DNA of 63,417 nucleotides, filler included, from Basidioascus undulatus (taxonomy: Eukaryota): the NCBI GenBank assembly GCA_000826855.1. It is 10 parts of 10 records of this genome, joined end to end, with 100 filler letters (N's around TTAATTAATTAA, not from the genome) between each part and the next. Parts side by side here need not be neighbours in the genome. Positions count along the whole stretch, not along the records: positions 25,077 to 47,720 come from JTLS01000291.1; 9 more parts are not named here. One strand, 5' to 3'. Made by a program: the position numbers and the translations under genes. This document shows positions 22,730 to 61,278 of the stretch, piece by piece. The first letter of the stretch is position 1. Each line of letters begins with the position of its first letter. The notes under the pieces were generated by a model, which saw only the letters and a program-made list of their open reading frames with translations, was not told where the DNA came from and ran no database searches.

Positions 22730-22829
22730 NNNNNNNNNNNNNNNNNNNNNNNNNNNNNNNNNNNNNNNNNNNNTTAATTAATTAANNNNNNNNNNNNNNN
22801 NNNNNNNNNNNNNNNNNNNNNNNNNNNNN
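22730..22829. other. Artificial contig linker N44-TTAATTAATTAA-N44
   Basis: Identical 100-nt spacer with stops in all six frames; also at 24977-25076, 47721-47820, 49967-50066, 52211-52310, 54455-54554, 56698-56797, 58939-59038 and 61179-61278. Confidence 0.98.
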
Positions 22830-22934: not shown

Positions 22935-25076
22935 TGCCAGAGGTACCGCACAGCCGGTTGTTGCGCAAACAAAACGGAGCTCGCGGCACACGAAGGCACA
23001 AAACACGAGGCACAGGGCTACGGCCAAAGCTCTTGGTGCCCGCCTTTATTCGCCGTGCAAAGTGGTTGTATGGCTTTATGCTTAGGCATCGATTTTGCCT
23101 GCAGCTGCAAACAACTGCAAAAAGCCGCGGCGCGGAAAGACGGTAGTCTTTCCCGCCCCGAGCTTAGATTCTCAGTCTCCGCCAGCTGATTCCACATAAA
23201 GGCTCTTTAAGGGATCACGTACTGCCCTGAAACGAATTGATGATCTGCACAGTGGCATAAGGGACGCCATTTGCAACGGCAATATCGTCAAAGCGCTGAG
23301 CCCGCCACAGTTGGTACGTGAGGCATCATGCTATGTTGGTTTTCGGTAGATGTATCCATAAGCCCACCGACCTGTATAAAGATAATTTGTTTCTAGAACT
23401 GAGGGTAGTGCTGCAGCAAGTGCTCTGCGCGTTGGCTCCCTGTTGCCGCGCTTACACTTCCACTGCGGAGGCAATTGCGTCTCACAGACTCATTACTCAT
23501 GAACAGAACGTTTATACTTTGAACATGAGTAGTTTATTCTCAGTTCTTCATGCTGTAGGCCTGCCGGCCTTGGAATGCGTCCATGGTATCGGCTTGGCTC
23601 TGTGGACCTCTACAGCCAGTGTTTCCCCTGTCCAGCCCCCTTGCCCTCTTGGAGCCCTGCTTCGTTGACAAAAATACTTCTTACTGAAGGATTCCCGTTA
23701 GGAGTGAATCTTCCTTGGTTGCAAGGATCTCGTTTTTTCTGTTGCGGCCCAACGTCCGTGCATACGAAGCAGTGGGCGCAGGCGGCCTTCGGGCGACACA
23801 AAATAAAAAGCCAAATTTATGTTGGGGTCCTCAGTAATACGATTATCCTCCCTTTATAGCAGTGGAAAACTTCGAGAGACTCCAGAACGCTTCGGTAGTG
23901 TTGCACCACTTGTTCTCAATGTTCTAGGGAGGCTTTTCGAGTCCGCGGTGGTTGACAATTGCCTGAAAAAGAAAAAGGAATGTATGGGATGGTCTAAGCT
24001 TTCGGTGCAACAATGGCGTTTGTGGCAAATATGAATGTGAACTTACCGTGTCCCCCTGGAGCATGCAATGCAAAAAAATGGTCAGCGGGGATACCGCGGG
24101 AAGGTCAAATGATGGAGCAACGCACTTTGTAAGAGCGGTAGTGCGATATGAGACCAAATCCGGAACCAACAGCGAGGAGTTTGTAGTCGGCAGTGTCGAA
24201 GGCCCACTGAAGTTTCGGGCGTCAATTCGTATCTGTGAAACTCTCTCTAGAAACGCGAAAGGCCTGCATTGTCTGTGAAGTCAGGCGAGCTAGTCAGCAT
24301 ACCGAATTTTCAGCGATCAAGATACAAACTCACCTAGGGTCGTGCTCTGCATTCTGTACTGCCGATCTCCGTCGAAAGGGTATTGTTGTGCCAGCCTGCG
24401 CGCATGAGCAAGTCGTCAGCTCGCCGCCGACTGGCCTAATACTTCGCTCGTGTCACCGCCCTTCGGATCGTTTCCTTTCTCAAGATGGATTTGTAAAGCC
24501 ATCAACAAGAGCGGTCAGTCTTCACGAAGAGATCCCACCGCTGGAAGAAACACTCACAGCTGTCACTGCTGCGTTCAGGCCCATCGGGTACGGAAGGCTT
24601 TCATGACGCCAATCCAGCTAGAAATAATCCAGGTCGGAGGCGGTCTTGGCTGAAAGCTCGTCCAAATCCATAGCGATGAAGAACACCACATGCATGTGCT
24701 GAGGTTCAGCGCGCGATTGCGCAACGTCTGCACGGATGCATCAGCCCGTGTTATCTCGAATCCAGCCAAAGAGAAGCAGAAATATCCTACCTGCCGCGCA
24801 CTGCAAGACTTTTGTAGAGAAGGAGAAGTTTTCAGTTGGCTTACGAGATTGACGGTAGGTATGGCACTGACCATGGTGGAACCGCTTCAAGTCGAACCAC
24901 ACTTCGGCCCCATCCATGTGCACCTGTGAGAGCCCAGAGTTGCCATGATCATCAGATTTGTAGAAGATTATTTACTNNNNNNNNNNNNNNNNNNNNNNNN
25001 NNNNNNNNNNNNNNNNNNNNTTAATTAATTAANNNNNNNNNNNNNNNNNNNNNNNNNNNNNNNNNNNNNNNNNNNN

Positions 25077-27049: not shown

Positions 27050-30000
27050 CTAGTAGATGTACCGGAAGTTGACCTGCGTCAAATTTGTATGATAATTAGA
27101 GGCATCCTGTCCATGCCTTGATACATGAGACTCACATTCTGCTTGTCCGTCAGATCCGCGAAAGCCGTCGCGTCCTGGTCGTGCCTTTCTACGACCTCGC
27201 CTCTTTCCTCGCGCTCCCGCAGCTCCTGCGCGACCTGCTCCTTCTTCTTGTTTGCCCGGGCGTACAGGAAGCGGAGGAGCAGGGCGGTCGCGATCTCGAG
27301 GCAGTTGCAGACGAGGATGGCGCCGATCCCGAGCGGGTACTTCGGCGCTTGCTCAGACTTGAAGAAGCTGGGTGGGGTGGGGAAGAGGGGGTTAGAGAAT
27401 GATATACCGGGGTGTGGGAGGGAAGGGGAAAAGCTACAATGGTCCGATCGTGTTCCCGATGCAGAAGCCGAGGAAGCTCATCGCTACTACGATCATCTTT
27501 TTGGTGTGACCTGCAACGCATGGAGGGAATGGTGTGAGAGACTGGGAGTTTGGAGATGAACAGCATTCTTTGCTCACCTGCCACTGAGGATGTGATCATG
27601 CTGCACTCGGGATCAGCATTCATGTCCAAGAGCTAGACGTACAGCTGTGAGGGATAGTACCTAAGCATCAGAACATAGGGTGCTTGGAAGGAGCCAGTTA
27701 AGTCTGTCAAATACGTATGATTAGTCTGAACTCTTCAATCCTGAAAACAGCTGGAAGAGCTAGGGGTCTTACAGAAGCAGAACAGCCGACCGACATGACT
27801 GTCCTGCGGTGCGAGCAGGAAGCCGAGCACGCCCGAGACGGAGGGCAGCATGTATGCAGCAATGACGAGGGTTCTGTCGAGCACCTATCAGCAATCCACC
27901 TCTCTCAAAACCGCTTGCGAGGATGAGACGCTGCGCACCTAGAGTTCGACGGCATGCGATCGTTGATGAGGATCGCGGAACTGATCCAGACGACCACCTG
28001 CGCTTCAACAGTGAGCATACTAAAGTTCTGCTTTACAGCAGGGCTTATGGCTTACCAGAGCCCCGTAGGGCACTTGGAGGAGCGTGGTGTGGAGCCGATT
28101 GAAGCCGAGGCCTTGGATACTGGGAGTGGAAGGGTCAGTGAGCAATTTTGGGATGGGCGACGAGGGAAGGGACGGAGTACATCAAGGTGCCGAAGTTGGA
28201 GATGCCGCCGTTCGGTGCTTAAGTGGAAGATAATTAAGTGAGAAATCCGTTCGTCGGGCAGGGAAAGTTGGCTCACCGTTGGAGAAGATGGCGAACCAGA
28301 AGTAGCACCACGCCTTGCAGAACGACACAGCGCATCATAAGCGTGAACCCAGAAAATATCTTCTCGTCAAAGGTTACCTTGACATCCGTGACTGTGTTGC
28401 CAGACCCAAACAGGGTCACTAACTCTCAGGATGAAGATTAACGTAACAGAAACGTACTGGCTTCCCAGAACTGGTCCCACTTCCAGTGCTTGTTTCTGCA
28501 TGGTCCTACAAAGTGAGAACACGGTTGTGCCGCTCGTGATCAACAAGTAAGCTCACTCGATGCCCGTCTGGTTGTCACGCAACCGTGCGATAGCGATGAG
28601 CGTCTCTTCCTTGGTCAGCCAGCGGGTCGTGGCCGGGCTGTTCGGGACCGAGATGGCGGAGGTGAGTGGTCCCGCTCACGCTCACAGCGCGAAGCGGCTT
28701 ACTTGTCGGGCAATAGAATCATTATCACGATTCCCCAGACGAAGCATGCGGCACCTGGAGAGCAGGGTAGAATGAGCGCGAGTCTTTCATGGTCAACTGG
28801 GAGTTGCTACGCACCGACGATTAGGAACTCGTAGCTTGCGGTTTAAGGCAATTCAGGAGTGTATGTGACCAAGCCATAGGGTGTGTCGCTCACCGCCAGG
28901 AAGGTAGGCCGCCACGGATGTTTCCGATACCATACTGCGGTCGACGCTCAGATTCAGCCTGACTGTGGCCTCGCAGCCTCAGAGACGACCTACACCGAGC
29001 AAACCGCCGACGCTGTATCCAATTCCGTTCGCCAAATACCAAATGCCTGATAAAGAGGAAAATTAGTACAAGTCGGACTCTAAAGTCCATTGAGACGCCT
29101 ACCTATCCGCAGAGGCTGCTCGCGACGTGTATAAAACACTGGGATACCAAAGTCAGCGAGAGCGGAGGCCATAAGGATGCCGGGTCACTTGCTGGAAGTG
29201 ATAATCATGAATCTAAACCGGCAGATATGGTCAGAGTTTTTGATCGGCGTCAAATGGATCAAGCGAAACTGACGCAGGATCGGCTGCAGCCTCAACAGCA
29301 CCACTGAGGCATCGTACGACGACCAGGGGCGCAAAAGCGTTGCAGGCCGCTTGGCACATCAGCAAGACGCCCCACATCTGAGGGGTTCGGAATGTGCAGG
29401 ACTTAATCAGAAAATTCCGATGCGGACCCAAAGAGGTGATGAACGCACGGAGATCATAACACCGAGAAATTTGGCGACGGGCAGTTTTTGCAAGAGGAGG
29501 TTGTTGGGCACAGCCCAGACCAGCCACCCGAGGTAGAAACAGGACGAGAGCCAGCTGTACATGGTCCCGTGGAGGTTGAGGTCTTCTTTCATCCCGAATA
29601 TAGCTGCGTAGCTGTAACGAGTTTGGGATCAACACTACTTTCAGCCGAGCGGGTGCGACAAAACGGGGTTACCTCAATGTCGTTTTGTCGATATAGTAGA
29701 ATGCTGGTCCAGAGATGGGGTCAGAGTCAGGAAGATTGTTGGGAGACCAGTCTAACCATAGCAAACTGAGAGCCTGCATTATCGGGCGGCAGTGGTCAGT
29801 GTGAGCAGCCATTGCTGCAGTCCACGAAGAATCAAACCACTACCCACGCTGATTATCCCCCCAGTACCACAACCGGTTGCGGAATTAGGGCAATCTTCTC
29901 ATCAAGATTGTATCGAGGGTGATTCGACTCACCAGGAAGGATGAGCCAGTCAATCTTGCGAATGACCTTCTTCTCCTCTGTGGGATCGATGCCCTCCGTG

Positions 30001-30191
30001 CCCTCGCCGTATCGCTCTTGGACCTCCCGGTAGATGGCGGGATCGATGTCCTTGCTGATGAGGCGCTTCCACCAGGGCATGGGCCTCGGCGGCGCGACCT
30101 TGTAGTACTCATTATGCGTCGCCTCGACCTTCTCAGCATCGCTGCTAGCGCGAGATATGAGTGGTGGCGGCCCTTTGCTGTCCGTAGCCAT
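27050..30191 (-). CDS. MFS anion:cation symporter, allantoate permease (Dal5) family; very intron-rich
   Basis: KVIRKIDWLILP...FYYIDKTTLSYAAIFGMKEDLNLHGTMYSWLSSCFYLGWLVWAVPNNLLLQKLPVAKFLG; RCLSGAVEAAADP; FYTRREQPLRIG; C-terminal DLTDKQNVNFRYIY*. Confidence 0.92.
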
Positions 30192-31652: not shown

Positions 31653-32271
31653 AATGAGGAGCGAGATTGGAGAGCCACGACCCGGACCTGGATGCCCAGC
31701 GGCTCACCAAGTCCACAGAGAAGCAGTAGAAAGGCTGGCTCTTGAATACAGACATAATAAAAGGAGACGAATGACTTGCGATCCCAATCCCACGAGGATT
31801 GGGACCCTTGGGTTTATCAGTCAACTGTCACAACACAAACAACTCCGCCTTGCAGACGGTCACGCGGGGTCACACGGGCGTGTTTGTTGTCGAGTCTCCA
31901 TTACCCCGAGTCGCCAGATTCATGACGGGACACGTTCCCCGAAGTGCCTTGCGGCTACAAGCGCTTGTGGGATACTGCCGCCCGAACTGCTGACTGGCAT
32001 GAGCCGGTTGTCGAGGCCAGGCTGGCCAGTCGAACGTCGCCCTTTCGTCCTCATGGGACATGCTCAGTAGTAGGATAACGACTCAGTAGTATTTCGCCCG
32101 CCACTTTCACACACTCTTCCGTGCCCCTGCGCCTTCACAGCTTGGTTAATCACCTGATCGGAGTCATTGTACCTGATCGCTAGGACACGCCCGGGGTTAC
32201 AACCCACACCTTTGATACCGATCTGTGGTTCTCTCTTCACTTCTCCTTCCCCCTTTACCGATCATACGACC

Positions 32272-35183
32272 ATGACCGACAACAAGCAAGAACTCCGTGA
32301 TATTGAGAAGGAAGCTACGGTTCACATCGACAACGTCGAGCCGAATCGCGATGCTGCAGAAGACGGCTCGGACGCTCTTCAACCGGAGTTCGACCCCAAT
32401 GTAAGCTCTGCAGTTGATTTCTTCCCCGGATCCCCCCCTAGGTCTGATCGGCTTGACCCTCAGACTACGAAGCGCATCTTGCGCAAGCAAGACTGGCGCC
32501 TCATCCCCATGGCTGCTATCATTTACTTGATCGCGCATTTAGATCGTGGCAACATCGGCAAGTCCCCTACTTGACTGTTTCAAGATGGATTATGGAGAAG
32601 GAGTGCTCAGCTTCCCCCTACTTCAGGGAATGCCCGTATCATGAACTCGGAGCAGGGCGATTCTCTCACACAGCATCTTCACCTGTCGCCGGGGAGGTTC
32701 AAGCTGGCGCTGCTTACATTTTTCATTGCCTACGTTGTGAGTCTGGAAAATGAGCGCGGTTCTATACTTGAATTGACTCTGTTTTTTCGCTCCAGGTTTT
32801 CGAACGTATGTTTGTGTCCGAATGGTGAGACTTTCTTCACCTAACCATATTGCAATTCCAGCCGGCATGGTGTACCTCATCAAACGTCTCCGCCCGAACA
32901 TCATGATTGGAATCTTGGTGTAAGTAAATTTACTATTCATTTGTACTTTAATGGAATTCTGAGCAGTAGTGTCGGATGGATTTGAAAGTATCGGCTGGGG
33001 CTCAATTACCATGTTGACGGCTGTGGTGAAAGACTTCGGCGGGTTGGCTGCTGCTCGATTCTTTGTGAGTATACTGAGATACTACAACGTACTTTTTTAT
33101 TTGACGACTGACCTATATCCGTAAAAAAGGTGGGCATGTTTGAAGCAGGACTTTGTGGGTGATATCCGCCTCTCAGTCGAATACGCTTCTGCTCATTTCT
33201 AACCGACGCCTCATTGTGCATCAGACCCGTGAGTATAGCTCAACCTCTTCCTTAACTTTATGTTCACTACTCTAACCGCTCCTTCAGTGGTCTTGTCTGT
33301 AAGCAGCTGCACGTTACGCCATTTGCTTATCGCGACTGGCTGACGGTACCTTTTGACTCCAGTTTTGCTCACGTTCTGGTACCGTATGCGTACATGTTAC
33401 ATTGTGGTACAGTTTCAGGCGCTTACTGGAAGGGCGCATAGGTCCCGAGGAACGCTCCATCCGCACTGCGATCATCTTGGCTTCGAGCACCCTAGCGTAC
33501 GCTTGTCATGTGTTGTCGCGTAGGACTCCGTTTCAGAAAGCCGATGCTCACATTTGCAATTTCACAGAGGTGCATTTGGTGGAGCACTTGCTTACGGGAT
33601 TAGCCATATAGTGAGTTTAGCATGAACTTACAACATTGGAGCTGACTCGAGGCTCGCTTCCAGAATGGCCGCGCCGGGATCCGTGAGCCAACTCTCACTA
33701 GAATGCTCAGACTCTCAGGTACTGAATCTTGGTGTGTAGAGGGATACCGGTGGTTGTTTTTGATCGAAGGCGCGCCATCGGTTGCCGTTGGTATCGCAAC
33801 CGTCTTCCTGGTGAGTGGGACCTGGCCTCCTGTCGACCTTGTCGAGTTTTTGTTGATTGAAGCCCGAGTCCCCGTATAGTATCCGTCCTTTCCCGAGCGT
33901 TCAAGCTTTTTGTCCGCTTCCGAGAAGTCCATCGTGGCCCAGCGCATGAAAGACGTCGGGAGCTCCGGCCGCGATAGGATCGTGGCACGGGAATACTTTG
34001 CGGTTCTTGCAAACTGGCGCATGTGCGTTACGCTTACTGTTTCGATGCATGGACTGAGTCTGAAAACACTGGAGAGGAATGTGATTCAGATACGCGCACT
34101 CGCTCATCGTTGTAGGAAATTCGTGTGTCTTCAACAGCATCTCGCTGTTTGCGCCCAGTGCGTTTCAGTCGTGTCATCTTCCCATCCCGATGACACAGTC
34201 TCATTTGCTACCCCTTCCTTATCCATTCCTATTCCGAAGCTATCATCAAGGGCCTAGGGTGTGTTTCTTACTTCTCTTGTGCTCTGGGTTGTCCTTCTCA
34301 TGGTGCTTTTCTGCCCTGCAGCTACACCTCGCTTCGGGCACAGCTTCTTTCGGGTACGTTTCTCTCACTTTCCCGGGGAATAGACACTGATGATCTCGCA
34401 GTTCCTCCATATGCTGTTGCATATGGCGTGACACTTCTTGTGGCATGGAGTGGCGACCGCACAAACTCCCGCGGCATACACTGCGCTGTGTGCATGGTGC
34501 TGTGCTCGTAAGGCTCTGCTTACTTCTCCAAATAATCACCAACTAACGCTATCTTGTATTCTAGGGTCTGCTTCTGGGTCATGGGCGCCATCGAGCCGAC
34601 GGCGTATGCGGCCCGGTACGCGCTGCTTATCATCGCAACCGCAACAGGGTTCCCAGCAGTCCCCGTACTTTCGACATGTCAGTGCATCTGTCGGGCTTGT
34701 GGAACAGGAAAGAGGTCTCGCTAATCCGAACGCCGGACAGTCCTTTCGGCAAACCTGCATACCACCACTGAGGCAGCCGTTGGCCTGCCTGTTAGCTTCG
34801 GCATAGGGTATTCAGGTGTGTTAAGCAGATGTGTCTTGATGTGGCCCAAGACTGAAACGAGAGTTTCCCAGGGATGATCATTGGGGTACCTCATCGGCAC
34901 AGTAATACATGCACTATCTTGAGCTGTTGTCTGACATGTTCTTGCCTTCCAGCTTTTCATCTACAACGACTCCGAGGCACCGGGATACAAGTCGGGACAT
35001 TTCATCAACGCCGTGCGTCTTTTTCCTCACATTCACCCAGGAAGAGTTACAGTTGACCCTTGTTCCGCATAGGGTATGAGCATTCTGTCTGCCAGCGCTG
35101 CCCTCGGCCTCGTGGCATTCTACTCGATTCAGAATAGACGCATCAAGCGTTCGAGGACAGACGAGCGGTTGTGGGCCCTCTGA
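32272..35183 (+). CDS. MFS anion:cation symporter, Tna1-like (nicotinate/pantothenate-type); very intron-rich
   Basis: RILRKQDWRLIPMAAIIYLIAHLDRGNIGNARI; GMFEAGLYPGLVFLLTFWYRPEERSIR; LAGAFGGALAYGI; GYRWLFLIEGAPS; IIKGLGYTSLRAQLL.VPPYAVA; TGA at 35181-35183. Confidence 0.92.
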
Positions 35184-35751
35184 GTTTCAATTGTCGTACT
35201 GTAAAGGTGTTTGACGCATCCGCCCATGGGATATGCGGCCGATGGAGACTACCGTATTCTGATGCGTGACGTGTGCCATGAGCGTGCCGAAACCCGGGAC
35301 CGCTTCAAGACCTGCAAGTGCCACCACACTTACTGACTGCTTTCATACACGAATCTGTTAAGTCAGGCTGTAAGCAACGTCATATGAACAAGCATATCCG
35401 ACGAGTCGATGAGCGTGAGCCGCATGCATAATGACTTCCTCACGCACCAAGAGTAACCGCAGCTGCAAGGCAAGCAAAGTTGTACACATATAGTGGTAAG
35501 CATGTGTGGTCAGTAGGTATAGAATGTATCGATCTAGTTGGATTTGCGGGACTGCGAGCAGGGCATGAGCGAACGAAACGAGTTGCGAGGTGGAATGCGT
35601 AACAATGGAAATGTGGAGGAGAGCCACGAAACATGAGAATGTGGGAAACTAATAAAGTGCTGTTCCAACTATAAAGTAGGGGAAAAGAGCAGGGCATAGA
35701 TGTCTAGGGGTGGGTGAAAAGTGTCCGAGGGGGGAAAAGATGGACTAGAGT

Positions 35752-38700
35752 TCAGAAGCTGAAGATCGCCGCGCGACGGCGTCTGGCGCCGCCGAGAGGG
35801 TGAACGACGACGGCAGCGAAAAAGAGCCTGGAAGCGTTGAAAATGGGTTAGACCGCAAGCTGGGGACAATTTGGAAACAATTCGGAACACATACCCGACA
35901 GTCAAGCTACGGAGCACAACGAGACGAGAGTGGTCAGCCTTGACGCGCGACCGTGGGAGGACAGTCGAGGAAGCACGTACCCAATGGCAACTTGAATCAA
36001 GGATTGACCGACGCTCAAACCGTTGGAGAAGCTGATGTTTGAGCCGTCTTTGGTTGTTGTCGATTTTTCGGCCCTCTGCGCAAAGTGGAGGAGACCACCG
36101 CTGTCACACGAGCCAAGTCGTGAACATAAGCCTGCCCAGGTCAAACAGTTTGGTTAAGCGAATCCGGCTTACTTGGAAAGACCAGTCGGAAGCTGGAACA
36201 ACGCGGCCGGCAACATCATCGTGAATGCGGCGCCGTGACTGAACTTGCCCCACAGGTTGCCCAGAATGCCGACGGCCTGCACGACGGGGCCGCACGACGA
36301 TAAGCCACGTCAGAAGCCCACGACGCACGCGCTTCTCATACTCACAAAGCTTCCGACAGCCGAAGTGAGGTCGGAGCGGCTCTGGAATCGCTTGCCGGCG
36401 CTGCAAGGCAAGTGGAACGGTCAGTTGAGCCGGGCGGCAGGGCTCGTTGCTGGCTGCTTGGCTCACTAGAAGTTCACGACCCAGCCGGTGATGGCTGTCA
36501 GAACCTGCAGTGGCAGCTCGCGCGAGCGCAGAGAAACGTTCTGTCGCAGCGTGATGAAGAAGGCGTCTGCGACCACAGATTGTCAGTCTCCGCACAGGAC
36601 GAGTCAGAATGAGAGACGTACAGGCTGGCACAAAGAGGATGTACTGTGCAGTGGTGAACCCGTTTCAGCAAATGTTGCGCAGGCTATGAGCTGAAGATTG
36701 GACTTACCCAAATCTCGCCTGGTGTGCGCTGGTACACCGTGTCGTTGTGCCGAGACGCGCATGTAAAGCTGTAACCCGGCCAATGCCAACATCAGCTTGG
36801 CGCTCTGTCGCGACAGGACAGCGCAGAGGTGGGCACTCACTCGAGATCGATTGGTAGGCCCGTCAAGAGATACCACAGTTCGGCGCCGATGCTGATTCCG
36901 AAGCCCTGTGGAGACCTGTCAATAGGATTCCAACGGACATACTAAGTGGGCGGAAGACACACAAGGAAGAGCGAGTAGATAATGGCTGGAAGTCAAAGCT
37001 CGTCAGCAACTTTGCTATCAAGCTGGCTGAAGATATGAGCGCGGTGACATACCGTAGAACATGCGCACGCTGCCTGATACGATATTTCGCGCAGACAACT
37101 CGAGCGACCCGCAGAGCACGATATAACCCTTTACGTCACTTTGGATGTCAGTCCTCGACAGCAAGCCTCCGACGCTCATGACTACTGACCGGAAGAATCA
37201 GCACCACCGAGCCCGCGATGACCGCCGAGTAGCACACATTATGCGCCTGCGACAGCGCCGCGGCGATGAACGAGTTGAGGGCAGCGATCGCGATTCTGCA
37301 GCCGCGTCCGACGTACTTACAATCAGTAACGGGTCGAATTGAAAAGAAGGTTAGTAGCAAAGTAAAGCACGCACTCGAAGACCTGTCCGAACAGATCGTT
37401 GCGCGCGGAGAGGAGCTGGATGCCGCACAGCAGCATGCCCAGCGGGAACGCGAGCAGCGAGTCGATCATGCTGCCTTTGAACGTTAGAGGCTGCGCACCA
37501 CAACGCAAGTATCGTCAGCTATAAGGGCGGGAGGCAATAGGGAGCCAGAGACGAAGATGACGCACAGTGATGAAAGCCGAGCAGCACCCGCCGATCAAGA
37601 TCGTCCACCAGGCGTTGTACAGCTCCTTGCGGAGCATGAGCTCGTCGAGCTCCTTGCTCGCGTCCGAGACGGACATCTCGTCGTGCGTGACCTGTCGTCG
37701 CAAAGAGAACGGGTCAGTCGTCTGCAGCAGACGCGCGCCGGGTGGATCGCGAACGCACCTTCCAGTAGAGGTAGTGCGTCAGGAGCAGCCGGTCGAGGTC
37801 GAGCGTCGCGCCTTGCTTGATGAACCGCGTTTCGCTCGTGTGCGTCGCGGGGTCGCCGAAGGAAATGAGCATCATTCCGGGAAGGTAGATGCACCTGCGA
37901 GGCGACCGGGAACCGGCTGTCAGTAAGCGCTGTATGATCGGCGTTGCAGGTGACGACGACCACGCACTGCATGTTGACTGCGGTGGAGCGCGATGTCAGC
38001 TCTGGAATTAAGGTGCGGAGTGGATATGGTGCTCACCGTCGAGAACCCGCGCCGTCGCGCTCATCTGCGCTTCCAGGCGATGGGAGCTGTCGAAAGAAAA
38101 GATAAGTCGTTACGAAAGAATACGGAGCAGGCGAACTGCGTACGGAGCACCGAACATCAACACTGCGCACAAATGTCAGCATCGAGCACGCTATGAAACA
38201 GCAAAATGCGTACGAGCTCGACAAAGTTTGAGAAGGAACTCCTGCCTGTGCAGCATAGCCGCAACGTGCATGGTGATCTACATCCAACCCCGTCAGCTTG
38301 CGTCTTCCCTTCGTCTCCGCCCCGCGCTCACGCACATAAATCTGTTCCTTCTTCCTCTTCTCCCTCGCCTTCTTCCGTGCCTTCCTTTCCTTCTCCGCCT
38401 CCGCCTTCGCCCAGTCCTTCTCCTTCGTCGAGAAGTACCCGTCCGTCCCCGGGTGATCCTCCGTGTCGCTCGTCCCCAACGAGCTCACATGGCTGCGGCT
38501 GTGCTTGTGCCCCCCACCCAGCGGAGTTTGGACCGCGTGCATAAAGTGCTGCCACCCCGTCTGGCTCTGCTTGAATGAGGGCACGGACTTGCGCTGGCGC
38601 GGCTCGTTGGAAGGCGCGGCGGCGGTGGATGTCGTCGATGTCGTGGGGGAGTGGGAATGTGTGGGAGCGAGGGGAGGGCCGGGGGGACTCCGCCCGCCGC

Positions 38701-40228
38701 CCTGGCCGAAGAAGGTCGAGGAGAGAGGGGAGGTAGGCGCGGAACGGTGCCCGGATTCCAGGCTCTCGCTGCTCCGGTTCGTTTCGTGCCCGGCGAGCGA
38801 GTAGCGGTTGAGGTGGAAGCCTGACCGAAAAGCATGAGCATCGAGAACAGATCAGCAAGGCACGCTGAGACAAAACAGAAGAGGAAGCGGAAGACGCACC
38901 AGAGCGCTTCAAGTCGGGGGCGACAGACGCGTTCTGCGGCGTCGCAGCACCGGCGATGGTGGCACCCGCCCCCACGAGCGCACCGAACACGCCCGCGCCG
39001 TTCCTCGCGCTCTTGGGCCTTTCGGGCGGGCGGAGGTGGAGCGGGTCGGGCAGCTTCGGCTTCTTCTTGTACTGCCTGAACTCGGGCGACGACGGCGAGG
39101 CCGGTGACGGCTGCTGCTCCTTCTCCTGCTGGTCCTGCTGGCGGACGGTCGAGAGCGTCGGGACGGAACCGGGGGACGAGTGCGCGCGGATGGGCGGCGG
39201 GCGGAGGAACTGGAACGACTTGCGCTCCTTGTGGTCCTTGTGCTGCGACTGCGGGACCATCGGCGTCATCGTCCCGTCCGTGTCGCTCGACGCGATGGAG
39301 TGCACGCGCGAGCGCTGGCCGGCCGTCGTGGTCGTCGGCGTGCTGATCCCGGACGAGGACTGCGTGCTCGCATGATGATGGTGATGCATCGCGAGCAGAC
39401 TGCCGAGCACGCCGAGCGCCTGCGGGCGCGAGTGCATGGGCGCAAACGCACGGTGCTCCTCCTCCTCGTCCTCCTCCTCGTTCTTCTCCGGGTCCTTCGC
39501 ATCCGCCGTGGGCCGGCCCGACGCAGTCCGTTTGTGCATGAACTTCTTCATCCCGCTCGTCCCGTGGGAGGCGACGAGCTTCTGCGCGCGCTTGGCGAAG
39601 AAGCCGAGGGAGCTGCGGTCCGAGTGCGGGTCCGCGGGGAGCCCGTCGGTCTCGCCAAAGGGGATGTACGCGTTCGGCTCGGCGGGTGGCGGCGTGGGAG
39701 CGCGCGAGACGTCCGTGGAGGGGAAGGCGGTGGTCGTGTTTGAGGTAGGGGAGGAGCTGGAGCTAGATGGGAGGCTCAAGTTGGAGTCGTTGCGGCGGAG
39801 GGACTGCCGTATCAGGCTCCTACGAAAGAAAGGAAGATGCAGGGGTCAACCAGCGTCATTCTCGAGCTCGGCCTGTGTCGCTGAGACGTACGACTGTAGC
39901 CTCATGAACGCCTCATGGTCCATCCCTAACCATCCATCCACCCTCCAGTAAGTTCACGTTGCCCAAAGCCCAAGTAGAAAAAGATGGAATACGCACCAGC
40001 CTCGTCCAGCGTGCTGGGCGAGATGACCGGCGACGCCTTGGCCGGGAGAGCCGTCCCCTCGCTCCATTGGACCTTCCTCCTGCTCTTCTCCAAGCGGCCA
40101 ATGCTCGCCGGGTCGACAGCGGTGTCGTCCGACGTTCTCTGCTCGTTCTCGTGGAGCGCGTGCGGGCTCGAGTAGCCCGTATCCGGCAGCTCTAAGCGCG
40201 GGGGGAGGGGGGAGCCCTCGGTGCTCAT
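35752..40228 (-). CDS. PRM10: Pheromone-regulated membrane protein 10 / ThrE (DUF1212) family
   Basis: Long disordered N-terminus, then ITMHVAAMLHRQEFLLKLCRALLMFGAP.HRLEAQMSATARVL, YLPGMMLISFGDPATHTSETRFIKQ, LILP-GYIVLCGSLELSARNIVSGSVRMFY, and LIQVAIGLTVGLF...AIFSF*. Confidence 0.9.
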
Positions 40229-44208: not shown

Positions 44209-47200
44209 ATGGCCTCGAGCGCGCACCGCCGAACAGTCCTCTGGGACCCGCTGTCCCCCGAGCAGCGCCCGCCCGACGCGCAGGGCCGGTTTGTCGTCGC
44301 GGGGCAGGATGTCCGGCTCTATCGCGAGCTGCAGGGCCCGGAGGAGCGTGGGCGGGTCGTGCTCGAGCATGGCATGACAGATGTGCCCCACGTCAAGGTG
44401 CGTGTACTCCTCCATAATCCACCACGATGATGGAAAGGAAGCCGGTCGTTCTGCTAAACACGTGAGGAGGGGGATGGCAGTCCATCGCCTGGTCCCCGCA
44501 CCCCTCGCACCCGACCCTCCTCGCCCTGGGTCTGACCACCGGCCAGACGCATCTCACCCACCTTTCGCCCTCCACAACGTCCGCGACGGCCCCGCCGACA
44601 CCCTCCGCAGTCCTCCCCGCGCGCGTCTCCCGCTCGGTCAACGACGTAGCCTTCTGCTCCCTCGACCCGTCCTACCTCTGCACAGGGCTCGACAAGGTCC
44701 GGTCGGACCACAGCCTCTTTGTGTGGGACGTCGAGTATGCCGCATCCTCACCCAAACCCACTGGGCGCCCCTTCTCCCGCCCCGAGCTCAGGCTCCCCGT
44801 CCGCGGCGCCCCTAGCACGGCAGCCGACCCGCGCCCTCTCGCCGCGTACGGGAGCGGCGAAGCGTGCACTTCCGCGCTCTTCCTCCCAGGCTCGACGCGC
44901 CTGCTCGTCGCCGCCCTCGCATACAAGACCGTGCGCCTATACGACCTGCGCGACGAGCGGCCCGCGCAGACGTGGCCGACCAAGGCCGTCTTTGGCGCGA
45001 CGGCCGATGCGCTCGAGGGTGGGCGGCGGTGGGCGACGCTCTCCGAGGACGGGATAGTCAAAGTCTGGGACTGGCGGAAACCGGGCGAGGCGGTGCTTTC
45101 GTTCTCGTCTGTGGACGCAGCGGCCAGCGGCGGCGTGGCTTCGACCACCCACCCGCGCTTCGCTGCTGCCCCCGCGCCTATACAGTCCATCGCTTTCTCG
45201 CCCAACCGCCGGGGCGTGCTCGCGACGCATGAGCGCGATGCGGCGGTAGTGCGCTTGTGGGACGTCACCGAGAGCCGCGTGGTAGACGATCGTGGCGCGG
45301 GTGCAGAGGCGGGGGGCACCGAGGACGGGTGGAGCAGGTGGAATTGGAATACGCCGAGCAGCGTGTTGGGCGGGACGAAGGTCCCCGAGCAGGCGGTTGG
45401 CTCGGCCGGCTCGGACGCGCACGAGGCGGACGAGCCCACCCCGCCCGTCCTCACCTCTGTGCGGCGGTGTAGGTCCTTCCAACATCCCCATCATCATCTG
45501 CACATGCTCATTCCTCGTCTTTGCAGCACCCCGCTTCCCCTCCCCCCTATCATCCTTCACCTTCGCCACTCCCCCGCCCTCATCCCCGCACACCACGCGC
45601 CTCCTCGGCGTGTCCCCCTCCGGCATCCTCACATTCACCTCCCTCCCGCCTCCGTCATTCCAGTCCTTCTCCCGCGCGTCGAACGACCTCGCCTTCGCCT
45701 CAGGAACGCACGTCCGTGTCCGATCTGCCGGATCCAGCGGTTCTGCCCCCTCCGCGCCTCTAGATTTGCGGCATCATCACCGCCGGGCGCCCTCCAAGCG
45801 AACAGGACAACCCGCCGTGGTGGCTACGTTTACTTCGTCATCTGACGATGATGACGAAGACCACTCGACCGCGCACCCTTCGTCTTCAGCAGACCGCCTC
45901 CCGCCCAACGCCCACCCATCTTACCTCTCCTCCTCAGCAAGCACCACCTCCTCCACCAACACCACCTCCGCGTCCTTCTCCCCCTCCGCGTCCACATCCA
46001 CCTACGCCCACTCGCCTGCGCACTCGCGCCCGCGCGGCAACCTCGCGTCCCAGCTGCGCGAGAGCGAGTCGGGCGAGGCGACTCCGCGGGCGATGAGCCT
46101 CAGCCGCGCGGCGGGCGTGCGGATGCGGGATGATGTGGGCGGGGGAGAGGAGGATGGGGAGAAGCTGGAGGGGCGGTTGGAGGAGCTGAGGCGGATTGCG
46201 AGGGAAGGGAGTGGAAGGGGCGCGAAGAGGGGCAGGCCAGAGATGGGCACGCTTATGCGGGAAAGGGCGATGAGGGGGTATGGGATGGACGTGAGTCGCG
46301 AGAGAGCGGTGCGGGAGATGGCATGGCTTATGGTGCTTTGGGTTGGCGTGGGCAGCCGAAGAAGAACGTCGAGATTGTGAGGCAGGATCCGGAATGGCAG
46401 GAGCGGCACGACGAGGTGTTAGCCGTATGGGAGTGGGTGGATCGTGCGTCCTCCACCCCTCTTCACATTCCCCGTCTTACGTCTCACCCTACTCTCCGTA
46501 CCCAGACTCCCTGCACCTCCCCTCCGCCCTGCCCACAGCCGGCAAGCCCGCCCCAGCGTCCTACGACTTCACCCTGTCCGGCCTTTCGCCAATCATATCC
46601 CGCACGCTCCCTCCCGTCCCGTCCACCTCGCCCCTCCCCCCGCGCCCAGACGCGTTCCAGCACGCCGTCGCCGCGCTGAACGCATGGCGGTGGGATGCCT
46701 CCCCGGTGGGCGCGCCCGGGCCGTGGCGGTGGGTCCGGTCGGCCAAGGTCGAGGAACGGCGACTGGGGCTTGCGGTTATCGGGCTTGAGGAGGACGAGGG
46801 GCGCGGGGAGGGCAAGGTTTTGAGACTGGAGAGCAGAGGGATGCACGCACGCGCGGCGGCGTCGTCGTTCTTCCTCGGTAACATCCCGCGCACGATCGTC
46901 TCCCTCAAGCGGTCCGAAGGTCCGTTCCCCACCCTTCTCTCCCTCCTCCTCCTTCTCTGCCATGCTTATCGCTTTACCCCGTAGTGGAGTCCCACCGCCT
47001 CCTATCGACCACGCTCCAGGCGTACCTCTCCCAGCCCGACCGCGGCTCGCCCGTCTGGCGCGACCTCTGCGCGAGCCTGAGCACCGGGCTCGAGGACCCG
47101 CACCTCCGCGCTATGCTCGCGTTCGTTGGCGCCGGAGGGGACTGGGAGGACGTCCTGGATGAGCCGGGACTGCCGCTCAAGGACCGGCTGGGGGTAGCGC

Positions 47201-47720: not shown

Positions 47721-47820
47721 NNNNNNNNNNNNNNNNNNNNNNNNNNNNNNNNNNNNNNNNNNNNTTAATTAATTAANNNNNNNNNNNNNNNNNNNNNNNN
47801 NNNNNNNNNNNNNNNNNNNN

Positions 47821-49966: not shown

Positions 49967-50099
49967 NNNNNNNNNNNNNNNNNNNNNNNNNNNNNNNNNN
50001 NNNNNNNNNNTTAATTAATTAANNNNNNNNNNNNNNNNNNNNNNNNNNNNNNNNNNNNNNNNNNNNAAGGAGGAGGGGAAGGGGGGGTGGGCAGCGTAC

Positions 50100-50885: not shown

Positions 50886-51179
50886 GGTGAGTCGCGGTGA
50901 AGCGTGTGTAGCTGTTGGTGGTGAGCGAGGAAGATGGCGAAGAAGTGAGAAGGCCGGTGACGTACCGACACTCACGAAGTCGAGAACGCGTGCGCGGCAC
51001 CGCCTCAGGGGTTGAGCTCGTTCGTTCTGCTCTCACTACTCATCCACGCTCGTTCTTGTTGCTCAGATCCGCCTCACATTCTCTGGCGCGGTCCCGCGCT
51101 ATCAACCCGGCGCACGCTGTAATCACGGTCGCTCGCAACTCGCATTCGTCTCTTCATCTTACACTCCCCATTCATTGAG

Positions 51180-52144
51180 ATGTTCAACCACCGCCGCCGT
51201 CGATCATCCGCATCCTCATCTTCTTCGAGCTCGTCCTCGTCCTCGTCCTCGTACTCATCCTCGTCATCCTCGTCCTCATCATCCTCATCCTCCTCCTTCT
51301 CCACCGGCCCCCTCACCCTAACCTCCACCGCCCCCTCCCACTGGTCCTACACCGCCGAAGGCGGCGCAAACATCGTCTTCCGGTACACGGGTCCCCCCTC
51401 TCGCCTGTTCACAGGCACCGTCCTCCGCCTGCGCAAGTCCAAGCGCTCGACATCCATCTCCCCGCACACGGGGAACCTCGACCGTCCCTCCCGCTCTTCC
51501 TCCGCGGAAGAGGAGGAGGAGGAAGACCCGAGCATCGCGTTCTCCGCGCAGGTTGTAAGGCCGCTGCTGGGGAGGGGGCTCGTGCCCCCGTTGCGGAGCG
51601 TGAGGCTGGAGAGGGAGTGGGTGGGCGAGCTGGCGAGACGGGAGGAGGGGAGACGGCCTCAGGGACGGAGGAGGGAGGATGGAGTGGATGAGGAGAGGAA
51701 GTGCGGGGTGTTGACTACGGATTTGGTGGGGAAGTGGACGGAGGAGGAAGAGGTTCTGACGGTGGAGATCAAGGTCCGTCTATCCCTCCCTCCCGTCCCT
51801 CATCCCCCGCATTCTAACCCCCTCTTCCCACCAAACCTTGTTTCCCCGACGAACCCGCCCCCCAGCCGAAATGGGCCTTCCTCCCCTCCCCTCCTCACCT
51901 CTCCTCCTCCTCGCGCCCGTATAAAGCATCCCACAGCCGCACAACGATGCACCGCATCCTAAAGCACCCGGGGCTGTCCGCGGCGGACGCAAAGCGCGCG
52001 TACGACCCGCTCGACCTCTTCTCACGCGACCCGGCGCGCGTGCGCAAGGCGCTCGAGGACCTGTGGGACGGCTGGGTCGGGAGCGGCGGGGAGGCGAATA
52101 ATCTGAGGGTGTTCGTTGCGGGGAGGAGGGTGGAGCCGGGGGTG
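51180..52144 (+). CDS. IPK1: Inositol-pentakisphosphate 2-kinase (3'-truncated)
   Basis: WSYTAEGGANIVFRY, GTVLRLRK, VEIK|PKWAFLP, YDPLDLFS and NNLRVFVAG motifs; poly-Ser N-terminus. Confidence 0.9.
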
Positions 52145-52310
52145 GTGCGTTGTTCGTTTTTCTTCTTCTTGTTCTTCCTTCCCACCTTCCCCATCTTCTT
52201 TCTTCCTTCCNNNNNNNNNNNNNNNNNNNNNNNNNNNNNNNNNNNNNNNNNNNNTTAATTAATTAANNNNNNNNNNNNNNNNNNNNNNNNNNNNNNNNNN
52301 NNNNNNNNNN

Positions 52311-54454: not shown

Positions 54455-54554
54455 NNNNNNNNNNNNNNNNNNNNNNNNNNNNNNNNNNNNNNNNNNNNTT
54501 AATTAATTAANNNNNNNNNNNNNNNNNNNNNNNNNNNNNNNNNNNNNNNNNNNN

Positions 54555-56697: not shown

Positions 56698-56797
56698 NNN
56701 NNNNNNNNNNNNNNNNNNNNNNNNNNNNNNNNNNNNNNNNNTTAATTAATTAANNNNNNNNNNNNNNNNNNNNNNNNNNNNNNNNNNNNNNNNNNNN

Positions 56798-58842: not shown

Positions 58843-59038
58843 TGCATTGTGAGTGGACTCCCCTGCATCACACCCAAGGTCCTCCCAGCCACACCCCTGT
58901 TGCCACCCTTCCAGAACTTTCCATCTCTTTCTATCTCTNNNNNNNNNNNNNNNNNNNNNNNNNNNNNNNNNNNNNNNNNNNNTTAATTAATTAANNNNNN
59001 NNNNNNNNNNNNNNNNNNNNNNNNNNNNNNNNNNNNNN

Positions 59039-60659: not shown

Positions 60660-61278
60660 AGCGCCGCAGGGGATTTGATGAGGAGGACGACGAAGGAGAA
60701 AGGGAAAGGGAAAGGGGAAAGACAGCCCGCGAGACTTGAGCGGGTGCAGCAACGTGCATCGGATGCAAAACGACGCGCGACGAAGGCGCGTGGTTATTAT
60801 AGGACTGGCTGGGGGACGGCCAGAGCGACGAAAATGAATATTTTGAGAGGGGGTGTGAGAGTGCAAGAAAGCGACAAGGAAGGGATATGTGGGAGGCTGA
60901 GGTGTTGAAGGGAAAGAACGGAATGGCTGCTACATAAGACAGAAAGGTGAGGATCGGGAGTTTGCTCCTCTTCCCACTCTCCCTCTCCTTCTCCCCACCA
61001 ACCCCCACCACCCGCACAGCCCATGTCCACCTACCCGCACCCCCACACCGTCCCACCCGGCTACGTCCCCGAATCCCGCTTCCAAGACGCCCTCCGGAAC
61101 TTCGTCCGTCCCTTCCGCCCCCTCCTCCTCCTCCTCCCATCTCCCCAGTCAGCATAGGACCCTTATGCCTCGGACGGGNNNNNNNNNNNNNNNNNNNNNN
61201 NNNNNNNNNNNNNNNNNNNNNNTTAATTAATTAANNNNNNNNNNNNNNNNNNNNNNNNNNNNNNNNNNNNNNNNNNNN

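Follow-up and report, generated by a model that had tools for sequence, protein, structure and literature searches.

We describe here the exon-intron structure of a transporter gene of the fungus Basidioascus undulatus, in which one exon probably consists of a single nucleotide. The gene lies on the minus strand of a 63,417-nucleotide stretch of DNA from assembly GCA_000826855.1, which was analysed as a whole and is called the window below. It encodes a protein of the allantoate/Dal5-like family of the major facilitator superfamily (MFS) and is contained entirely within the 22.6-kb piece at 25077-47720 (JTLS01000291.1). We put at about 0.75 the probability that the C at position 29848 is an exon of its own, kept in the mRNA between two short and otherwise ordinary U2-type introns (29932-29849 and 29847-29774). 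The codon after the conserved proline of the ...ILP motif would then be assembled from three exons: the last G of exon 1, the C, and the first G of a 17-nt exon, which together would read GCG, for alanine. The coordinates of all features are collected in Table 1.

Reading Frame across the Junction

The gene model was assembled from coordinates, guided by two homologues. With 25 exons and 24 introns, it begins with an ATG at 30191 and reaches its stop codon at 27052-27050 directly after the C-terminal motif ...FRY-x-Y, which is conserved. The coding sequence (CDS) comes to 1623 nt (540 codons plus stop). Exon 1 exits in phase 1 while the 17-nt exon has to be entered in phase 2, a mismatch of exactly one base, and the CDS is a multiple of three with zero internal stops solely when the C at 29848 is counted, as the middle base of the G-C-G codon in the model. 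The original prediction had proposed just such a codon drawn from three exons, and its reading holds in each part that could be checked.

The products that lack the C behave as had been foreseen. Excision of the 159 nt as one intron causes a frameshift, with the early stop falling at codon 102. Splicing to the internal CAG at 29768-29766 keeps the frame and shortens the product by 3 residues, and skipping of both small exons (1 nt and 17 nt) also preserves the frame, with a product 6 residues shorter from which the conserved VCY is lost. All other canonical donor/acceptor pairs that we tried in the interval were rejected, each of them either meeting a stop or dropping conserved residues.

Splice Signals of the Two Proposed Introns

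The coordinates and motifs of the original prediction at this junction were all found as described. In intron 1 the branch motif is CTAAT at 29888-29884, whose branch A, 29885, lies 36 nt short of the 3' end; the acceptor, the cag at 29851-29849, is the first AG past that motif. In intron 2 the motif is CTGAC at 29799-29795, with the branch A, 29796, placed 22 nt before the 3' end, and here too no other AG intervenes between motif and acceptor. Between them, cag-C-gtgggt is the sole AG-N-GT/GC within the 159-nt interval.

Splice sites were scored with position weight matrices built from the 22 other introns of the gene, whose leave-one-out scores span -0.5 to 8.7 bits for donors and -1.3 to 6.7 bits for acceptors. 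The donor and acceptor of intron 1 score 7.9 and 2.2 bits; those of intron 2 score 2.8 bits (3.3 once intron 1 is removed) and 6.1 bits. Both inner sites, the donor at 2.8 and the acceptor at 2.2 bits, lie within the gene's own ranges. Of the 22 reference introns, 17 carry a comparable branch motif, located (the acceptor-proximal one being taken) 12-29 nt before the acceptor, and CTAAT and CTGAC agree with these motifs. As for length, the reference introns measure 53-71 nt (mean 61.9, standard deviation 4.8); a single intron of 159 nt would stand approximately 20 standard deviations from the mean, compared with 84 and 74 nt, which are near the range.

The completeness of these signals bears on one alternative, namely that the junction is a nested arrangement resembling a stwintron, in which excision creates a signal, or a non-canonical splice in which the missing base comes from a displaced non-GT/AG site. 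Fungal examples are on record both for stwintrons (PMC5587772) and for intron shifts by one base, but in our gene the signals of both introns are complete before excision, and neither excision brings a further in-frame splice site into being. Moving the outer sites by one base would mean splicing at TG or CA dinucleotides instead of GT or AG. We consider this explanation highly improbable.

Table 1. Features of the transporter gene and of the window.
Feature	Position	Strand	Remarks
MFS allantoate/Dal5-like transporter, whole coding region	27050-30191	minus	model built from coordinates; collinear with P0002, P0003 and P0123
Exon 1, 259 nt	29933-30191	minus	ATG at 30191; phase-1 end ...CCT G; encodes conserved ...ILP
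Proposed intron 1, 84 nt	29849-29932	minus	donor GTGAGT; ends aatcag
Proposed 1-nt exon, C	29848	minus	sole AG-N-GT of the interval; retention opens the 1623-nt CDS
Proposed intron 2, 74 nt	29774-29847	minus	donor GTGGGT; acceptor tgcag
17-nt exon	29757-29773	minus	phase-2 entry; encodes conserved L-S-V-C-Y, transmembrane helix 1
Internal CAG, rival acceptor	29766-29768	minus	frame kept, three residues (x-L-S) lost; 1.9 bits
Intron 3, 53 nt	29704-29756	minus	donor GTTAGA; CTGAC branch motif
31-nt exon	29673-29703	minus	encodes ...FYYIDKTTL
163-nt exon	29449-29611	minus	
20-nt micro-exons	29212-29193 and 28834-28815	minus	
GC-AG intron	29139-29192	minus	donor GCAAGT; needed for the in-frame conserved ...ITSM-F-YTRREQP... 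junction
14-nt micro-exon	28391-28378	minus	
23-nt micro-exon	27600-27578	minus	
Linkers	22730-22829, 24977-25076, 47721-47820, 49967-50066, 52211-52310, 54455-54554, 56698-56797, 58939-59038, 61179-61278		

The Gene and Its Family

Judged by its full-length similarity to proteins that carry the Pfam domain MFS_1 (PF07690), the gene is a member of the MFS allantoate/Dal5-like transporter family. The family name is taken from database sources: one such source names P0002 as an allantoate-permease-related protein of Pseudozyma flocculosa, and a profile search found 526 relatives, of which 120 were listed; the named ones among the matches listed are mostly called "MFS allantoate transporter" and come from ascomycete moulds. 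End to end, the model is 54% identical to P0002, 53% to P0003, and 57% to P0123 (52-57% overall), and its alignments to these three proteins have zero gaps at all 24 junctions. Because the family alignment runs without gaps across every junction, we regard the gene as intact and not as a decayed pseudogene. MFS_1 matches P0123 (1e-35) and P0002 (1.5e-24) over the full profile, starting right at helix 1; when compared with a 54-residue exon of the window alone, the same profile gives 15.8 bits (E 0.007), which is under the cutoff. The gene thus shares with the Dal5/allantoate-permease-like MFS proteins, of the anion:cation symporter group, both the helix-1 motif and a full-length identity of 52-57%.

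Searches with single exons gave smaller sets. The 77-residue exon, compared with a library of 1.84 billion proteins, returned 59 matches, the best being P0123 (61% identity over the exon, 57% over the full length); the 54-residue exon matched 3 proteins, and with the exon-1 peptide as query no relatives were matched. The window's own protein is absent both from the 120 listed homologues and from the 59 matches of the 77-residue exon. In the nucleotide sequence, tblastn matches to P0002 and P0003 stop exactly at 29934. A scan of metagenomes yielded 10 loci, all of them distant paralogues with at most 70% identity over 23 residues, and not one that informs on the junction. One of these (L008, 2499-2754) has an intron inside the helix-1 stretch, between ...LVF and YLDK, near the position of intron 3 of our gene, and may represent an older intron position that the two share.

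The gene is dense in introns throughout, with one per 68 nt of CDS (approximately 15 per kb), and intron phases 0/1/2 occur 5/9/10 times. In order, the exons measure 259, 1, 17, 31, 163, 104, 20, 36, 53, 41, 20, 52, 81, 38, 14, 37, 37, 64, 59, 101, 43, 23, 73, 232, and 24 nt, so that the proposed exon belongs to a series of micro-exons of 1, 14, 17, 20, 20, and 23 nt. A structure with 24 introns is far denser than we would expect for the Dal5-like family.

Constraint on Helix 1

Does the protein family tolerate a helix 1 without the extra codon? The original prediction had proposed comparing the length of this helix among orthologues. In the 120 listed homologues, on which all counts at helix 1 rest, the segment ILP-x-[LI]-[ASGC]-VCY...IDK is ungapped without exception, as it is in P0123 and P0144, and the length from ILP to IDK is therefore fixed in the family. 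At residue x, after the proline, 106 of these proteins have Y, 8 have F, 3 have L, and 3 have C. Leucine follows in 112 and isoleucine in 8, and the third position holds A (103 proteins), S (14), G (2), or C (1). In the window, the in-frame codons directly upstream of the internal CAG specify L-S. Because L-S stands there and none of the 120 has a gap, the acceptor at 29774 is the one that fits the family, and exactly one extra base is needed.

These comparisons weigh on a second alternative, in which the functional mRNA lacks the C. It would either use the internal CAG, with an exon of only 9 nt remaining and helix 1 shortened by three residues, or join exon 1 to 29703 and lose six. Both of these products are open to the normal stop, and the internal CAG is located just 8 nt past the first AG in a pyrimidine-rich context. 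However, either product would have a gap where 120 of 120 homologues have none, and the joining of exon 1 to 29703 would in addition delete VCY along with the 17-nt exon. The bases that the internal CAG would make intronic still encode L-S, in keeping with the family consensus [LI][AS], and this acceptor scores 1.9 bits, compared with 6.1 for the first AG. It is unlikely, in our estimation, that the functional message is made in this way.

Chance, Assembly Error, and the Single-Intron Alternative

We asked how readily such a site arises by chance. In 20000 dinucleotide shuffles of the 159-nt interval, with the site required to leave at least 50 nt on either side, a bare AG-N-GT arises in 9.8% of cases. 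The fraction falls to 3.8% when both sites must at least equal the weakest score among the 22 other introns, and to 0.56% when a branch motif is also required (CT[ACG]A[CT] 10-40 nt upstream, with no AG in between). With thresholds set post hoc at the observed scores, the corresponding figures are 0.8% and, with the branch motif, 0.14%. On both strands of the whole window, 32 AG-N-GT sites reach the observed thresholds, and just 1 of them has a branch motif: the site at 29848.

A third alternative is a single 159-nt intron (29932-29774), with the frame mismatch explained by a base missing from the assembly at an exon edge, or by a very recent real frameshift that left the gene dead or non-productive, and with the inner site a coincidence. 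Paired with each other, the outer donor at 7.9 bits and the outer acceptor at 6.1 bits, which has CTGAC 22 nt ahead of it, would suffice for a good intron. A bare AG-N-GT, moreover, is present in 9.8% of the shuffles, and the residue at x does not discriminate, since alanine and glycine are each found there in 0 of the 120 listed homologues. Against this, none of the 22 other introns exceeds 71 nt, which is less than half of 159 nt. An inner site with in-range scores, a branch motif, and a first-AG acceptor occurs in 0.14-0.56% of shuffles and nowhere else in the window. The local rate of insertions and deletions is low, because no other frameshift is found in 1623 nt and 24 junctions, and the error or mutation would have had to strike one of a few specific bases. 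The inner site, its branch motif, and the doubled length would all have to be coincidences. We therefore judge a single intron to be rather unlikely.

Several observations nevertheless weigh against a one-base exon. Some of them concern the proposed introns, both of which (84 and 74 nt) exceed all 22 others in length; in intron 1 the acceptor is weak (2.2 bits), and the distance of 36 nt from branch to acceptor is larger than in every reference intron (12-29 nt). The strength of the outer sites makes removal of the 159 nt in one step a real competitor. Others concern the sequence itself: GG pairs are present at 29933/29932 and 29774/29773, where one dropped G would restore the frame, and the source consists of fragmented draft contigs of uncertain assembly accuracy. 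The alanine predicted at x is seen in none of the 120 listed homologues, and P0123, the closest relative among the matches listed, has isoleucine there. Finally, some thresholds of the chance test were chosen post hoc, with the data already seen.

We also considered that a long single intron might harbour a structured RNA such as a small nucleolar RNA. This candidate was rejected: the best Rfam match, snoZ256, scores 18.7 bits (E 0.23) compared with a gathering score of 50, and the folding of the 159 nt is not unusual (z -1.7).

Mechanism and Origin

If the C is indeed an exon, it would probably be spliced by intron definition, the two introns being excised successively and in either order, as in the model put forward for Arabidopsis APC11 (PMC4674806). 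Since each intron is fully equipped, with a separate donor, branch motif, and first-AG acceptor, both orders should lead to the same product, and, the signals being complete and separate, two spliceosomes need not be adjacent. The outer donor and acceptor are the strongest of the four sites, and some one-step removal of the 159 nt is therefore to be expected. Transcripts that lose the C in this way would shift frame, meet the stop at codon 102, and presumably be degraded.

The arrangement is not that of a stwintron, an identity that we rejected: the signals of each intron are left uninterrupted by the other, and all of them are present in the primary sequence. It also differs from the ratchet point of recursive splicing, where GT follows directly on AG and the intervening exon has 0 nt.

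Saturation of the gene with introns is the likely origin of the one-base exon. With one intron per 68 nt of CDS, two introns that lie one base apart are not unexpected; when 24 introns are placed at random in the CDS, at least one 1-nt exon appears in 29% of trials. A special rescue event would then be unnecessary, and the exon could be regarded as the natural tail of an extreme intron density. An origin in the manner proposed for a Fusarium gene family, by a one-base deletion followed by rescue through a cryptic site (the scenario of PMC12940212), may also apply. On the present data an origin by duplication or by introner-like elements is not supported, and we rejected it, as the introns are similar neither to each other nor to the rest of the window: introns 1 and 2 have a local alignment score of 13, compared with a shuffle mean of 12.9 and a best score of 22 among 276 pairs, and a search of the window for copies of the introns elsewhere found only chance matches of 11-17 nt.

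It is tempting to combine these points. The one-base exon might be a by-product of near saturation, in a lineage, or at a locus comprising this gene and the divergent transporter next to it, that underwent massive gain of introns with indifference to position, with a spliceosome that sets no floor to exon size. Given the strong outer splice sites, such a gene would have a built-in leak of transcripts that skip the C, which could act through nonsense-mediated decay as a valve on expression. We offer this wider picture tentatively and think it unlikely.

Surroundings in the Window

A second, divergent Dal5-like MFS gene, in head-to-head orientation to the first, is found at approximately 32150-35200 on the plus strand. 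No intron interrupts its helix-1 stretch (32452-32547). The available homologues give only 2 high-scoring segment pairs with this gene and are too distant, and its span suggests that it is intron-dense as well. A simple scan for the pattern of donor, branch motif, and YAG at a length of 48-95 nt shows a raised density of short intron-like segments at approximately 34500-39000 on the minus strand and 33000-38500 on the plus strand. This contig piece may accordingly contain more genes that are dense in introns. Within the stretches rich in such segments, two long open frames have no Pfam match. Long open stretches are present elsewhere, in a MIOS-like WD40 gene (44466-45842) and in a gene for inositol-pentakisphosphate 2-kinase (51123-51959); in contrast to the intron-dense transporter gene, other genes of the window have exons of 0.8-1.4 kb.

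The window is made up of pieces of approximately 22.7 kb, 2.1 kb, and 22.6 kb, followed by several of approximately 2.14 kb. They are separated by nine linkers, each composed of 44 N, TTAATTAATTAA, and 44 N, where TTAATTAATTAA contains stops in all six frames. Because the window concatenates separate contigs, neighbourhood across a linker does not represent real synteny.

Comparison with Known One-Base Exons

Exons of one nucleotide have been described before. In Arabidopsis, the account of APC11 reports a constitutive 1-nt exon between canonical introns, verified with GFP fusions and reverse transcription PCR, and its authors favour intron definition with sequential, recursive-like removal in which the identity of the base is immaterial (PMC4674806). 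As far as that description goes, our gene resembles APC11 in having a 1-nt exon between canonical introns, and it differs in that APC11 is a plant gene with experimental verification, whereas the transporter exon is predicted from sequence.

A case of the same logic is found in the CYP621A cytochrome P450 genes of Fusarium, for which the published description gives a 1-nt exon G (AGGGT) that is shared by approximately 20 orthologues and confirmed by reads from the Sequence Read Archive (SRA); its authors propose a cryptic site that rescued a one-base deletion (PMC12940212). According to this description, both cases concern a fungal nuclear gene in which an exon ending in phase 1 cannot be joined to one that begins in phase 2. 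In both, what looks like one intron has over double the normal length (there the median), and a single AG-N-GT in its middle mends the frame and keeps an invariant spacing of the family (PMC12940212). The differences are that CYP621A retains a G in a P450 gene with approximately 20 orthologues and SRA reads (PMC12940212), while our gene would retain a C in an MFS transporter with 24 introns. For the transporter, two independent neighbouring introns seem at least as likely as a rescue of the CYP621A kind.

In Coprinopsis cinerea, an annotation from long reads is reported to contain 13 one-nt exons in 13 genes, with transcript support (PMC12230235). On the basis of this reported count, 1-nt exons appear to be a trait of fungal genes that is low in frequency but regular. 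C. cinerea is, like the species studied here, a fungus with short introns; its data form a genome-wide catalogue (PMC12230235). In stwintrons, as defined in PMC5587772, one intron interrupts a splice signal of another, and no base is retained. Going by that definition, the likeness to our gene lies in successive spliceosomal excisions from adjoining intronic segments (PMC5587772), and the difference in the two whole introns of the transporter gene and the single base that would be kept between them.

The original prediction had called 1-nt exons extremely rare. Their rarity stands, and "extremely" is too strong, as 1-nt exons with RNA support have already been published. With examples already known from Arabidopsis, Fusarium, and Coprinopsis, the transporter is a probable new one. 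If true, it would add a further fungal 1-nt exon in a new gene family, the MFS transporters, with a retained C in place of the G of the Fusarium P450 genes. It would also support the view that it does not matter which base is retained and that splicing by intron definition has no minimum exon size. There is a practical side as well: gene callers cannot model a 1-nt exon, and a gene of this kind consequently gets truncated, shifted, or split. With one intron per 68 nt, the transporter gene of B. undulatus would offer a compact natural substrate for studies of micro-exon splicing.

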